Source: Enterobacteria phage IME10
DNA length: 39,646 nucleotides
Sequence record: NC_019501.1
Reading direction: 5' to 3' (one strand)
Shown: positions 7,126-17,245 of the stretch, piece after piece
How the letters are laid out: each line of letters opens with the position of its first letter
Numbering within the stretch: the stretch's first letter is position 1
Made by a program: the position numbers and the translations under genes
Notes under the pieces: generated by a model
The model's database searches: none
What the model was told of the DNA's origin: nothing
Seen by the model: only the letters and a program-made list of their open reading frames with translations

Positions 7126-7425
7126 TCAAATAAGTGGTTTGCTGCCTAATTTCATTTTCTGGCGACCAACACAAGTCACACCCATTTCACTGCGTGGCTT
7201 GCGGTAGTAAATACGGTTCTGTTTACGCTCGACTTCTTCTGCCTTCTTGCAGCGAAGGATTCCGAGTGATGCTGCTTTATCTGCTCTGACGCAACCAGAG
7301 AGCTTTAGCGCAATTTTTCGTGCCAATCGCTGTTCTTGCATTGCCTGTTCACGTTGAGCCTGTCTGCGTGCTCTGCGGCGATTTCTGGCGTTATCGTCAG
7401 CCAGATATGTAATGACTACTGTCAT
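7126..7425 (-). CDS. N: Antitermination protein N
   Basis: Arg-rich N-terminal motif (NARNRRRARRQAQREQ); C-terminus (RKPRSEMGVTCVGRQKMKLGSKPLI) matches the lambda N C-terminus as remembered. GGAGGT ribosome-binding site. Confidence 0.8.
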   Translation of the reverse strand: MTVVITYLADDNARNRRRARRQAQREQAMQEQRLARKIALKLSGCVRADKAASLGILRCKKAEEVERKQNRIYYRKPRSEMGVTCVGRQKMKLGSKPLI

Positions 7426-7619
7426 GTTGACCTCCGATGATTGACTTTGGTGATTGGATGGCCGGTGCTGAATTCCGGCTTACTGGTTAGAGCGCCCGCA
7501 CTACCAGTGACGCTGTCTTGAGGCGCAGATTGGTTACTGCTTGCCATGAGCGCTGTTTATACATTGGTCGAGCATCAGCCTGCTCATTCATCCAATCCCA
7601 AAGCCAACTACTCTTTGGT

Positions 7620-7660
7620 TCCCGCATTTCGGCGGGACAATCCCATCAATGTTAAAGAGC
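7620..7660 (-). promoter_or_regulatory. nutL (boxA GCTCTTTAAC plus boxB hairpin)
   Basis: Minus strand reads GCTCTTTAAC, a 13-nt spacer, then TCCCGC-CGAAAT-GCGGGA. The same boxA and boxB recur on the plus strand downstream of cro. Confidence 0.65.
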
Positions 7661-14389: not shown

Positions 14390-15032
14390 TGGCAGCAAAT
14401 ACCGAAATATTTGGGTAGTTGGCGATCTGCACGGATGCTACACGAACCTGATGAAAAAACTGGAGGCGATAGGATTCGACACCAAAAAAGACCTGCTTAT
14501 CTCGGTTGGCGATTTGGTCGATCGCGGTACAGAGAACGTCGAATGTATGGAATTAATCACATTCCCCTGGTTCAGAGCTGTACGTGGAAACCATGAGCAA
14601 ATGATGATTGATGGCTTATCAGAGCGTGGAAACGTTAATCACTGGCTGCTTAATGGCGGTGGCTGGTTCTTTAATCTCGATTACGACAAAGAAATTCTGG
14701 CTAAAGCTCTTGCCCATAAAGCAGATGAACTTCCGTTAATCATCGAACTGGTGAGTAAAGGGAAAAAATATGTCATCTGCCACGCCGATTATCCTTGTGA
14801 CGAATACGAGTTTGGAAAGCCAGTTGATCATCAGCAGGTAATCTGGAACCGCGAACGAATCAGCAACTCACAAGACGGGATCGTGAAAGAAATCAAAGGC
14901 GCGGACACGTTCATCTTTGGTCATACGCCAGCAGTGAAACCACTCAAATTTGCCAACCAGATGTATATCGATACCGGAGCAGTGTTCTGCGGAAACCTCA
15001 CATTGATTCAGGTACAGGGAGAAGGCGCATGA
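14367..15032 (+). CDS. ninI: Ser/Thr protein phosphatase (lambda PPase / NinI)
   Basis: Track ORF trimmed to the ATG at 14367. Metallophosphatase motifs GDLHGC, GDLVDRG and GNHE. Confidence 0.9.
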
Positions 15033-15652
15033 GACTCGAAAGCGTAGCTAAATTTCATTCGCCAAAAAGCCCGATGATGAGTGACTCACCACGGGCCACG
15101 GCTTCTGACTCTCTTTCCGGTACTGATGTGATGGCTGCTATGGGGATGGCGCAATCACAAGCCGGATTCGGAATGGCTGCATTCTGTGGTAAGCACGAAC
15201 TCAGCCAGAACGACAAACAAAAGGCTATCAACTATCTGATGCAATTTGCACACAAGGTATCGGGGAAATACCGTGGTGTGGCAAAGCTTGAAGGAAATAC
15301 TAAGGCAAAGGTACTGCAAGTGCTCGCAACATTCGCTTATGCGGATTATTGCCGTAGTGCCGCGACGCCGGGCGCAAGATGCAGAGATTGCCACGGTACA
15401 GGCCGTGCGGTTGATATAGCCAAAACGGAGCAGTGGGGGAGAGTTGTTGAGAAAGAGTGCGGAAGATGCAAAGGTGTCGGCTATTCAAGAATGCCAGCAA
15501 GCGCCGCATATCGCGCTGTAACGATGCTAATCCCAAACCTTACTCAACCCACCTGGTCACGCACTGTTAAGCCACTGTATGACGCTCTGGTGGTGCAATG
15601 CCACAAGGAAGAGTCAATCGCAGACAACATTTTGAATGCGGTCACACGTTAG
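15029..15652 (+). CDS. Q: Late-gene antiterminator Q (lambda type)
   Basis: 207 aa, matches lambda Q as remembered, including the zinc-binding CRDCHGTG...CGRCKG. Confidence 0.95.
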
Positions 15653-15694
15653 CAGCATGATTGCCACGGATGGCAACATATTAACGGCATGATA

Positions 15695-15730
15695 TTGACT
15701 TATTGAATAAAGTTGGGTAAATTTGACTCA
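15695..15730 (+). promoter_or_regulatory. Late promoter pR' with the Q-utilisation (qut) region
   Basis: TTGACT (15695-15700), 17-nt spacer, TAAATT (15718-15723), immediately downstream of Q as in lambda. Confidence 0.7.
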
Positions 15731-15922
15731 ACGATGGGTTAATTCGCTCGTTGTGGTAGTGAGATGAAAAGAGGCGGCGCTTACTACCGATTCCGCCTAG
15801 TTGGTCACTTCGACGCATCGTCTGGAACTCCAACCATCGCAGGCTGAGAGGTCAGTAAAATGCAATCCCGAAACAGTTCGCAGGTAATAGTTAGAGCCTG
15901 CATAACGGTTTCGGGATTTTTT
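15730..15922 (+). ncRNA. Short terminated late transcript (6S-like) ending at tR'
   Basis: About 190 nt between the pR' start and a strong terminator: ATCCCGAAAC...GGTTTCGGGAT hairpin plus T6 at about 15864-15922. Confidence 0.5.
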
Positions 15923-16461
15923 ATATCTGCACAACAGGTAAGAGCATTGAGCCGATAATCGTGAAGAGTCGGCGAGCCTGGTTAGCCAGTGCTCTTTCCG
16001 TTGTGGTGAATACGCAGGCTGATGCGTTAATCAGGTGAACGAGACACCCGCCGGTCCGTGATATGGCACACTGTGCCGGTCATATCTGCCGCGGTTAGGT
16101 TTACGAGGATTTCGTAAAGCTGGTCTAGGGTGAAGCCGTGAAAGCGGAGGAAGTAAAACGAGGCGTCGGTACACGCCTATCGTCATTAAGTCGGAGTTCA
16201 GCACCGACCGCCACAACCCAACCTGAGCCGTAGCCACTGGCTGTCCTGAATTCATCAGTGATAGTTATGCTGCGTCCTTCTACACATGACCTTCGTGAAA
16301 GCGGGTGGCAAGAGGCTGCGCTAACAACCTCCTGCCGTTTTGCCCGTGCATATCGGTCACGAACAAATCTGATTACTAAACACAGTAGCCTGGATTTGTT
16401 CTATCAGTAATCGACCTTATTCCTAATTAAATAGAGCAAATCCCCTTATTGGGGGTAAGAC

Positions 16462-16785
16462 ATGAAGATGCCAGAAAAACATGACCTGTTAGCCGCCATT
16501 CTCGCGGCAAAGGAACAAGGCATCGGGGCAATCCTTGCGTTTGCAATGGCGTACCTTCGCGGCAGATATAATGGCGGTGCGTTTACAAAAACAGTAATCG
16601 ACGCAACGATGTGCGCCATTATCGCCTGGTTCATTCGTGACCTTCTCGACTTCGCCGGACTAAGTAGCAATCTCGCTTATATAACGAGCGTGTTCATCGG
16701 CTACATCGGTACTGACTCGATTGGTTCGCTTATCAAACGCTTCGCTGCTAAAAAAGCCGGAGTAGAAGATGGTGGAAATCAATAA
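16462..16785 (+). CDS. S: Holin S (class I, lambda type; dual start MKM)
   Basis: 107 aa matching lambda S as remembered; the Met-Lys-Met dual start gives holin and antiholin. Confidence 0.95.
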
Positions 16786-17245
16786 TCAACGTAAGGCGTT
16801 CCTCGATATGCTGGCGTGGTCAGAGGGAACTGATAACGGACGACAGAAAACCAGAAATCATGGTTATGACGTCATTGTTGGCGGAGAGCTATTCACTGAT
16901 TACTCCGATCACCCTCGCAAACTTGTCACGCTAAACCCAAAACTCAAATCAACAGCCGCCGGACGTTACCAGCTTCTTTCCCGTTGGTGGGATGCCTATC
17001 GTAAGCAGCTTGGCCTGAAAGACTTCTCTCCCAAAAGCCAGGACGCTGTGGCACTGCAACAGATTAAAGAGCGTGGCGCTTTACCGATGATTGACCGCGG
17101 TGATATTCGTCAGGCAATCGACCGTTGCAGCAATATCTGGGCTTCACTTCCGGGGGCTGGTTATGGCCAGTTCGAGCATAAGGCTGACAGCCTGATTGCA
17201 AAATTCAAAGAAGCAGGCGGAACGGTCAGAGAGATTGATGTATGA
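16769..17245 (+). CDS. R: Endolysin R (lytic transglycosylase, lambda type)
   Basis: 158 aa matching lambda R as remembered ([24 protein letters not shown]...). Confidence 0.95.

Follow-up and report, generated by a model that had tools for sequence, protein, structure and literature searches.

A two-domain, covarying RNA cassette in the late leader of Enterobacteria phage IME10

The genome of Enterobacteria phage IME10 (NC_019501.1), a stretch of 39,646 nucleotides (nt) that we refer to as the window, contains an interval between the antiterminator gene Q and the holin gene S (positions 15653-16461) which a preliminary description had presented as a long late leader holding only GC-rich inverted repeats, without toxin or transfer RNA (tRNA) cargo. 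The Q-S interval is a classic accessory slot of lambdoid phages and is the site of Shiga toxin genes, tRNA genes and small RNAs. As judged from its sequence, the interval in the window is a lambda-type late leader in which the promoter pR' with its qut site, a terminated transcript and the terminator tR' are followed by S with its dual starts. Within this leader, positions 15930-16217 are not empty: they form a discrete, widely conserved and covarying element, a self-contained two-domain non-coding RNA cassette of about 290 bases. The boundaries of the leader and the parts of the cassette are as follows.

15029-15652, plus strand: Q antiterminator gene, 207 amino acids (aa), an open reading frame (ORF) that bounds the interval upstream, with flanks alignable to lambda Q
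15695-15723, plus strand: late promoter pR', TTGACT-17-TAAATT, from a promoter scan and in register with phage HK630; overlaps qut at about 15701-15721
15730-15923, plus strand: predicted terminated pR' transcript of the lambda 6S type, 194 nt, by register with lambda in the alignment
15864-15878 and 15904-15918, plus strand: arms of the tR' hairpin, 93% complementary, followed by a T-run
15930-16005, plus strand: domain A, a long hairpin with a base helix of CACAAC (15930-35) and GUUGUG (16000-05)
15941-50 and 15988-97, plus strand: upper stem of domain A, AAGAGCAUUG and CAGUGCUCUU; interior variable, stem in common with lambda
16000-16217, plus strand: domain B, cloverleaf-like, from minimum free energy (MFE) folding, covariation and model match
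16000-08 and 16209-17, plus strand: P1 of domain B, a 9-bp closing stem, then an AAU linker
16012-16 and 16023-27, plus strand: H1 of domain B, D-arm-like, with loop GGCUGA at 16017-22
16028-16189, plus strand: interior of domain B, variable
16190-94 and 16204-08, plus strand: H2 of domain B, T-arm-like, with loop AGUUCAGCA at 16195-16203

The late-leader features agree with what had been reported for this region. A promoter scan of 15400-16800 returned a single sigma-70 site, pR', which shares its register with the features of HK630 annotated as 'similar to lambda PR'' and 'Qut site' and which, in a five-way alignment of the window with lambda, CUS-3, mEp506 and E212, differs from lambda by one substitution. 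The transcript, previously put at about 190 nt, comes to 194 nt when it is placed by register with the lambda transcript ends, and tR', with its hairpin and T-run, coincides with the terminator annotated in phage O276. The interval can be assigned to the lambda-type leaders with a short transcript on the strength of this predicted terminator and the register with lambda. The distance from the end of tR' to S, given earlier as about 540 bp, is 538 nt (15924-16461), and these 538 nt as a whole fold better than shuffled sequences (z -3.8; 0/100). The holin gene S occupies 16462-16785, with a protein that begins MKM and dual ATG codons at 16462 and 16468.

Domain A is built as CACAAC-AGG-U-AAGAGCAUUG, a variable interior of 40-60 nt, and CAGUGCUCUU-U-CC-GUUGUG, and in the window it has an MFE of -32.5 kcal/mol (z -3.9). 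Domain B begins with the consensus GUUGUGGUG-AAU-GCGCA[GGCUGA]UGCGC, continues through an interior of 29-162 nt, and ends with GCCGG-AGAUCAGCA-CCGGC-CACCACAAC, in which AGAUCAGCA is the H2 loop. Across the family the closing stem measures 7-9 bp and H1 and H2 5 bp each, and positions 16000-16217 of the window carry every defining feature of the A-B family. Folded in isolation, domain B of the window has an MFE structure of -78.4 kcal/mol that contains exactly P1, H1 and H2. The AAU linker between P1 and H1 is invariant in 69 joined cores, and the junction between P1 and H2 is 0 nt in 69 of 69, which gives 12-14 stacked base pairs. The H1 and H2 loops are complementary (GCUGA:UCAGC) and could pair intramolecularly or between two copies of the RNA. 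With the interior closed by a stem of its own, as it is in the window, the predicted fold of domain B is a cloverleaf, with P1 resembling an acceptor stem, H2 a T-arm and H1 a D-arm. An encoded CCA directly follows P1 in the window (16218-20), as it does at the expected offset in 29 of 90 unique tails, the window included. The segment GUUGUG is needed both for the base of domain A, where it pairs with the 5' CACAAC, and for P1, where it pairs with the 3' strand CACCACAAC; the two pairings exclude each other, the MFE and centroid structures of the whole leader differ over the partner of GUUGUG, and this choice may order folding or processing.

The helices of the cassette covary. For domain B, the 28-nt 5' and 3' cores of 69 distinct copies were joined; 94.8% of the cells pair, as against 26-53% in slid registers, and 11 of 24 pairs carry double changes, as against 3.5+/-1.2 in shuffles (0/500), a control that ignores phylogeny. 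H2 is compensated in the window, where GCCGG/CCGGC has become GUCGG/CCGAC, and elsewhere (GCUGG/CCAGC, GCAGG/CCUGC, CCUUC/GAAGG). H1 is likewise compensated in the window (GCGCA/UGCGC to ACGCA/UGCGU), and other copies carry GCACA/UGUGC, GUGCA/UGCAU and GAGCA/UGCUC. P1 is compensated in lambda (GUUGUGCUG/CAGCACAAC) and in copies with GUGGUGGUG/CACCACCAC or GAUUGGAUG/CAUCCAAUC. Multiply compensated P1, H1 and H2 helices occur among lambda, loci L260 and L263, and a second copy in the window, B2, described below. In domain A, 84.9% of the cells pair across 51 distinct stems, some of which stand in a one-base-shifted register, and 59 cells show double changes compared with 23.8+/-3.8 in shuffles (0/500). 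For the base helix CACAAC/GUUGUG, 303 of 306 cells are paired, and wobbles account for 25 of the 28 changes.

Pairing between the two loops was followed with variant scans designed to leave out the consensus base. The pattern GTGGTGAATN5GGCVGA returned mostly chance matches, the real ones being L200, L225 and L228 only; in both genuine copies of the loop 1 variant GGCCGA (U to C), L225 and L228, loop 2 is UCGGC (A to G). Variants compatible with wobble pairing were also found (GGUUGA; loop 2 CAGU). The loop-loop pairing is supported but not proven. On the plus strand, G.U combinations outnumber A.C combinations by 146 to 38, an indication that the RNA is read from this strand. The comparisons establish that the family exists, that its helices covary, that the plus strand is the functional one, and that the cassette is facultative.

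The facultative nature of the cassette is apparent when the interval is compared with related phages. Measured against lambda 44510-45185, it is 97.2% identical over 75% of its length, in two pieces (15653-16007 and 16213-16461), and no phage record covers 80% of it. In the five-way alignment, the first part, from 15653 to about 16007, is lambda sequence; the second, about 16008-16212, is absent from lambda and is 98.7% identical to CUS-3 and phage Huey; the third, about 16213-16461, is common to all five phages and runs into the start of S. The approximately 205 nt of domain B in the window correspond to 65 unrelated bases in lambda. Lambda keeps hairpin A intact, followed by an 85-nt mini-B (44857-44941; L001 1148-1232) that is closed by GUUGUGCUG/CAGCACAAC, a P1 compensated relative to that of the window, and that lacks H1 and H2. 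In mEp506, a tRNA-Asn and a tRNA-Thr gene stand in place of 15926-16215, and HK446 and Kapi1 likewise combine the flanks of the window with tRNA-Asn and tRNA-Thr in the slot. Either tRNA genes or a minimal stem-closed domain can thus stand in for the cassette, which is in effect a non-tRNA cargo of the slot. That the Q-S slot accepts tRNA cargo, as the preliminary description had assumed, is borne out by the annotation of mEp506 and Kapi1 and, for phages L and Sf6, by a published account that locates tRNA genes there and raises the question of their excision from the late message (PMC8022706).

A second member of the family lies elsewhere in the window. We built a covariance model, R1, from 18 compact family members. 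Owing to the long interior of the late-leader copy, the model matches it in two halves (31.2 and 25.7 bits); a second element, B2, on the minus strand is matched over its full length. The features of this locus are listed below.

7126-7425, minus strand: N-like gene with an arginine-rich N-terminus, an ORF preceded by GGAGG
7452-7597, minus strand: B2, second B-family element; R1 score 49.5 bits, E 1.8e-8, full length
About 7622-7657: nutL, by alignment to annotated features of phage HK620
8477-7827: cI-like repressor gene, from the leftward gene order

Read leftward, the order is the cI-like repressor, pL, boxA GGCUCUUUAACA with a boxB-like hairpin, a 6-bp hairpin, B2, GGAGG and the N-like gene; pL, nutL and N were placed by alignment to HK620, in which pL, OL1-3 and nutL are annotated. 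P1 (GAUUGGAUG/CAUCCAAUC) and H1 (GAGCA/UGCUC) of B2 are both fully compensated and its loops are those of the family consensus. HK620 carries in this position a mini-B of 59 nt, which GGUGACGUG/CGCGUCACC closes, and HK630 and mEpX2, which share the flanks of B2, likewise have a 59-nt stem-closed mini-domain instead; the full B2 element is present in Stx2c phages and phage Gally. Since B2 lies between nutL and N and the other copy lies in the late leader, both antiterminated leaders of the phage contain a B-family RNA; in each of them the frame of a hairpin and a stem-closed domain is constant, and the full domain B is one optional content of it.

The family extends far beyond these phages. A BLAST search with 15990-16230 gave unexpected matches to 71 GenBank phage records. 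In most of these the similarity is confined to the first 37-65 bases (about 97%); the phages have hosts among Klebsiella, Escherichia, Salmonella, Aeromonas, Hafnia and Erwinia, with siphophages of Klebsiella and E. coli, Aeromonas phage 62AhydR11PP and Hafnia phage Meifeng among them. The matching segments fall between genes, in several cases immediately 5' of tRNA clusters. The core pattern GTTGTGGTGAATRCGCAGGCTGATGC was found in more than 120 IMG/VR contigs among the matches listed. The exact 24-nt core occurs in 56 species-representative genomes from the Gamma- and Betaproteobacteria and beyond, namely in Enterobacterales, Aeromonas, Janthinobacterium, Massilia, Undibacterium, Moraxellaceae and Lysobacterales, and in metagenome-assembled genomes (MAGs) assigned to Geobacteraceae, Acidobacteriota and Desulfonatronovibrio. 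A variant typical of CPS-53-like prophages (L035-type) is carried by 1783 of 5426 complete E. coli genomes, O157:H7 included, and the window's own version by 275 E. coli genomes, seven of them with the full length. E. coli H9Ecoli and ES5 match the cassette of the window with 100% identity. Among the E. coli records listed, none has an annotation at the element; K-12 has none because its CPS-53 lacks the element.

The genes around the element are diverse. Its upstream neighbours encode Q proteins from two or more families (PF03589, PF06530) or an S24 repressor resembling cI; on the downstream side there are holins belonging to three families, or YfdP-like genes. Copies also occur beside unrelated genes such as terminase and capsid genes and tRNA clusters. 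Hairpin A is present in 128 of 165 distinct upstream contexts. It is preceded by a terminator T-run in 27 of the 128 and, in 38, by a boxB-like hairpin with a GAA-containing loop that ends 1-5 nt 5' of CACAAC. Small hairpins with GC stems that covary were also noticed 1-45 nt 5' of A, usually 1-5 nt away, in a range of loci (L009-L128, L277-L332), with examples such as CUCC-ACGAAAC-GGAG, CCUCG-GAAGAGA-CGAGG and GCCGG-GAAAGA-CCGGC; they may be nut sites of the boxB type or a further domain of a larger RNA. In prophages of the L035 type, A is replaced by TTGACA-18-TACATT within an operator-like palindrome, which ends 10 nt before P1, and L276, L315 and L283 have -10 elements of their own before P1. 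Promoters at the right distance occur in 8 of 165 distinct contexts (six of them variants of one promoter), against a chance rate of 0.5%. Because these promoters end just before P1, domain B can be a separate transcription unit that starts at P1. On the 3' side, 50 of 117 contexts have a site resembling an intrinsic terminator no more than 250 nt from B, compared with a background of 9.7%; none follows the late-leader copy in the window.

Two observations concern other RNAs near such copies. The Rfam isrJ model (RF01393) gives a match of 30 bits, against a cutoff of 37, that covers just the terminator right after B in two loci (L022 6563-6616, L127 5620-5671); isrJ was rejected as an identity for the element, although the Salmonella IsrJ small RNA (sRNA) may derive from such a leader. 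In L010 (2538-2726, minus strand) domain B has a C4 antisense RNA and an isrK homologue some 2.4 kb away, and prophages of the CPS-53-like type therefore have at least three structured RNAs around the immunity region. In phage PDP46 (L007 2406-2600) a 29-nt direct repeat, GCCGGATAAACGTAACCGGCACATAACAG, flanks an inserted A together with the 5' part of a window-type B, an arrangement that suggests a past recombination or insertion.

Known RNAs do not account for the cassette. As the preliminary description had held, the Q-S interval contains no toxin or tRNA gene: ARAGORN found no tRNA or transfer-messenger RNA (tmRNA) anywhere in the window, and ARAGORN, Rfam, ORF and PHROG family searches of the interval gave no credible gene. 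Rfam returned nothing at E<=10 in 15900-16300, the tRNA model RF00005 included, no hit at the gathering score in the whole window, and, at E<=1 over 15000-17000, a single chance-level match to snoU85. The STnc100, AgvB and AsxR models had no match, and the GOLLD and ROOL models matched neither the window nor eight related loci. No family of Rfam 15 matches the element. A search of the literature found no description, although that search was limited and a description under another name is possible; a literature search with sequence strings produced nothing relevant. The preliminary description is partly supported: the lambda-like leader that it reported, free of tRNA and toxin genes, is there and is of an ordinary kind, and its reading that the leader holds only GC-rich repeats was incomplete.

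Taken as a whole, the locus is best explained as a mosaic lambda-type late leader that carries a self-contained RNA cassette of a large phage and prophage family lacking an Rfam match, an explanation to which we give somewhat better than even odds. Nearly as probable, in our estimate, is the broader proposal that domain B and hairpin A represent a previously undescribed class of structured phage RNA that acts on a universally conserved host machine, whether by mimicking tRNA or serving as a decoy for nucleases or other enzymes that recognise tRNA, by binding polymerase, or by self-assembling into a scaffold like those of ROOL and GOLLD. Phages would insert this class into antiterminated leaders (between pL-nutL and N, or between pR'-tR' and S) or give it a dedicated promoter. 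Both copies in IME10 would be made only within antiterminated transcripts, pR' being the only promoter that the scan found in 15400-16800, and the late-leader cassette would be transcribed, as part of the late message, only once Q lets polymerase pass tR'.

A survey of tRNA neighbours bears on what the cassette might do. Between -700 and +1300 nt of B in 181 loci, ARAGORN identified 44 tRNA genes near 25 of the loci, all co-oriented with B, and it never called A or B as a tRNA in the 181. In a Massilia locus (L278 4484-4660), a tRNA-Gly ends exactly at the start of domain B, in place of hairpin A, and the B interiors of L290 and L103 hold segments resembling a tRNA D-arm and T-arm. Three loci, from one Acidobacteriota MAG and two Janthinobacterium genomes (L294, L304, L305), have ARAGORN tRNAs with four-base anticodons (ccat, aact, cact) about 115-250 nt 3' of domain B.

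The mechanism that we favour, tentatively and at well below even odds, is that domain B leaves the leader in the manner of the tRNAs whose place it takes and works as a tRNA-shaped RNA; this would fit its form, the tRNA genes found near it, the existence of copies beginning exactly at P1, and the invariance of its loops across phyla. Domain B would be cut from the leader by tRNA-processing nucleases, with RNase P acting at the 5' end of P1, and the excised product would be a stable RNA that mimics a tRNA on a highly conserved host partner during lytic growth. Several observations weigh against this proposal and the wider explanation to which it belongs. We infer the step to tRNA mimicry from shape and neighbourhood; neither ARAGORN nor the Rfam tRNA model recognises domain B, its loops are unlike real D and T loops, and CCA after P1 is encoded in just about a third of the copies. 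Constrained folding gives a four-way junction in 44 of 101 members, with one extra arm in 40. Uncompensated loop variants exist (GGAUGA, GGCUUA and many copies with GACUGA), and the core alignments are biased, in that the 5' core was set by the search patterns and variation there is under-sampled. Finally, the position of the element right after tR', boxB-like hairpins or pL, often with terminators on its 3' side, fits a role in transcription at least equally well.

Such a role would make domain B a cis-acting transcription element analogous to HK022 put: its nascent RNA would bind RNA polymerase soon after departure from pL or pR' and render the enzyme resistant to pausing or termination over the long operon. 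In CPS-53-like prophages B lies at the transcription start of a repressor-controlled promoter, in the window B2 lies between nutL and N, other copies come right after tR' or boxB-like hairpins, and terminator-like sites are frequent 3' of B; near-invariant loops across phyla would fit a universal partner such as RNA polymerase, and putL too sits just 3' of pL (PMC9378689). Set against this, B coexists in the same leaders with complete N/nut and Q/qut systems, is facultative among phages with identical flanks, and also occurs inside the tRNA clusters of lytic phages; no terminator-like site follows the window's late-leader copy. Both put and the family place a leader RNA just 3' of early promoters, as B is placed in CPS-53-like prophages and in the pL leader, but put, which binds the beta' zinc-binding domain, is about 70 nt with two long stems in a V shape, no closing helix and no sequence similarity (PMC9378689), whereas B is closed by a stem and has two short hairpins whose loops are complementary. 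Neither an A nor a B motif was found anywhere in HK022, and put was accordingly rejected as an identity for the element. An analogous transcription function is in our view unlikely.

Similarly improbable, in our view, is a purely structural role, in which the cassette would lack any independent function and would serve the leader as a spacer or processing module, joining nutL or tR' to the downstream ribosome-binding region or offering a nuclease site like the RNase III hairpin of the lambda N leader. The frame of a hairpin and a P1-closed domain is indeed constant while its content varies, as in the 85-nt mini-B of lambda and the 59-nt mini-B of HK620 at the place of B2, and tRNAs, which are also stem-closed, occupy the same slot. 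A spacer would leave unexplained the almost invariant AAU linker and loops across phyla, the copies with their own promoter and terminator, and the occurrence beside terminase and capsid genes and tRNA clusters.

That the cassette is a decayed pair of tRNA genes, a remnant without function, is very unlikely. It does occupy the slot of tRNA-Asn and tRNA-Thr at a similar length, some domain A copies contain GGUUCGAnUCC motifs like a T-arm, and H2 followed by CGCCA resembles a T-arm and acceptor end; compensatory changes and strong conservation across distant hosts nevertheless indicate selection, the conserved loops are not tRNA-like, and ARAGORN and Rfam give not even a weak score. We assign an equally small probability to a feature that acts as DNA, be it a boundary sequence or recombination site that serves mosaic exchange, or the termini of a small mobile element. 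In CUS-3 two boundary sequences, bsq3 and bsq4, are annotated in parts of the interval, the motifs CACAAC, GTTGTG and CACAAC flank the modules, the inserted copy in PDP46 is bracketed by its direct repeat, and the cassette is facultative in two different leaders. Opposing this are the strand-specific excess of wobble-compatible changes and the constant co-orientation with transcription and tRNA genes, and the loop-loop covariation and dedicated promoters point to RNA.

Least probable of all, to the point of being negligible, is that the interval encodes a small protein (orf-64, a 50-aa ORF at 16258-16410 or a 74-aa ORF at 16031-16255 on the minus strand). In its favour are matches to PHROG families 23692 and, for the 50-aa ORF, 22751, and the hypothetical proteins that several GenBank records place in the interval. 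Against it, a stop codon interrupts orf-64 in the window, no start of the 50-aa ORF is conserved and the ORF is disrupted in one locus, L041, domain B varies from 85 to 218 nt in length without triplet periodicity, and the 74-aa ORF, which overlies domain B, has no family match. No ORF in the interval exceeds 74 aa, and no stx gene was found. The remains of orf-64 are these.

15764-15958, plus strand: broken lambda 'orf-64', in fragments of 27 aa and 32 aa with a stop between them, from the ORF list

PHROG 23692 matches this region in two fragments, the substitution that creates the TGA is visible against lambda, and orf-64 in the window is, on its sequence, not a gene; the interruption speaks for orf-64 and PHROG 23692 being artefacts of annotation in the region of the 6S RNA and tR'. 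Among 11 near-identical translated variants, the 50-aa ORF shows several amino-acid differences, a comparison in which synonymous changes were not counted. The PHROG 23692 and 22751 matches are likely spurious.

Comparison with characterised phage RNAs sets the family apart from each of them. In Stx phages, the counterpart of the terminated pR' transcript of the window is the RNA that becomes StxS (PMC7547250). The tRNAs at the start of lambdoid and P22-like late operons (Sf6, L, mEp506, Kapi1, HK446 and Stx phages) share with the cassette their slot, orientation, similar length and a terminal stem (PMC8022706), but domain B has no anticodon arm, and its 'D loop' of 6 nt and 'T loop' of 9 nt could form 4-5 bp with each other. 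GOLLD and ROOL are phage-borne RNAs often found near tRNA islands, with conserved cores, a variable linker that can contain tRNAs, and kissing loops (PMC12286853). Their likeness to the element is one of lifestyle only (phage or prophage carriage, tRNA neighbours, a variable interior and complementary loops), and they differ in size (about 580 to more than 800 nt), in the bacterial groups in which they occur, and in having Rfam models that find no match here.

The C4/IsrK (clan CL00128) and P4 CI-type immunity RNAs are small structured phage RNAs derived from leader transcripts, from which RNase P cuts them, and C4 and isrK share prophages with domain B. They differ from the element in that they occupy another locus in L010; the Rfam C4 model misses A and B, and we rejected this group as an identity, since RF01695 and RF01394 match elsewhere in L010 and never A or B. 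In the lambda N leader, an RNase III hairpin juxtaposes nutL and the N ribosome-binding site. B2 lies in the same place, and its closing stem would bring nutL and the N ribosome-binding site together, but the lambda hairpin differs from B2 in both sequence and fold. Another candidate, the phi80 M3 RNA, which is said to be a phage RNase P substrate, was rejected because the phi80 record annotates it as the homologue of oop near cII and that phage lacks both the A and the B motif. The 84-nt Pas sRNAs also adjoin holin operons; they bind Hfq and have terminators, and as far as their descriptions go they are unlike A and B (bioRxiv 10.64898/2026.05.13.724894; PMC8550237).

The cassette is a third kind of cargo, often carried in the Q-S slot and in the N leader: a covarying RNA of tRNA-like shape that annotation pipelines miss. 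Its core barely varies across distant bacterial hosts, lambda retains half of the element, and about a third of complete E. coli genomes have a copy, so that standard systems are usable for its study. Its analysis could bear on why phages co-locate tRNAs with large RNAs such as GOLLD and ROOL, on the processing of late and early leaders, and on whether RNA-only mechanisms like put extend beyond the single example of HK022. If the cassette proved to be only a structural spacer, the gain would be smaller: a covariance model that explains many phage "hypothetical protein" calls.

Further structures lie between the cassette and S, in the part of the leader whose final 160 nt are the same in lambda.

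16227-16276, plus strand: hairpin module C, GCCGUAGC-CACUG ... CAGUG-auaguua-GCUGCGUC, from the alignment and the leader MFE structure
16307-16342, plus strand: hairpin D, GGCAAGAGG ... CCUCCUGCC then GUUUUG, from the sequence; weakly terminator-like
16361-16401, plus strand: inverted repeat GAACAAAUC / GAUUUGUUC, from the inverted-repeat listing
16442-16464, plus strand: CCCC-UUAUU-GGGG hairpin just 5' of the dual S starts, same sequence as lambda

Hairpin C is kept in lambda, CUS-3, E212 and the tRNA-bearing mEp506, and L099 has a compensated variant (GCUGCAGC/GCUGCAGC); the evidence for it as a structured module is modest. Hairpin D has a variable pair that is G-C in lambda and mEp506 and U-A in CUS-3 and E212; it contains one A.C mismatch in the window, is mismatched in HK022 too, and was not called by the terminator scan. 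The CCCC-UUAUU-GGGG hairpin is one that we take to be the lambda 'sdi' translational control structure of S, reportedly described by Blasi et al. in 1989.

Complementarity to S was noticed at two places upstream. Positions 16082-16093 in the interior of B (AUAUCUGCCGCG) form a 12-nt perfect complement to S codons at 16558-69, and positions 15921-15930, just after tR' (UUAUAUCUGC), are a perfect complement to the same S stretch, CGCGGCAGAUAUAA (16558-16571). Antisense control of S was considered and rejected: over 81 loci the mean longest match of B interiors to their own downstream sequence is 5.63, compared with 5.34 to that of others, so that there is no enrichment of complementarity to the downstream 1.5 kb, and the complementarity is probably due to chance.

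The inverted repeat that the preliminary description had located near 16360-16410 is real. Its arms, GAACAAATC (16361-16369) and GATTTGTTC (16393-16401), are exact and 23 nt apart, and by our own estimate about 0.1 such repeats would be expected by chance in the interval. It is not GC-rich, as had been stated, since its G+C content is 37%, compared with 49% for the interval and 47.5% for the window. The repeat is the same in six phages (IME10, lambda, CUS-3, mEp506, E212 and HK022) and so shows no covariation. The region of its 3' arm, 16392-16404, can pair alternatively with 16431-16443 (AUAGAGCAAAUCC), beside the hairpin before the S starts; the two pairings are mutually exclusive, and the choice between them could affect the translation of S.

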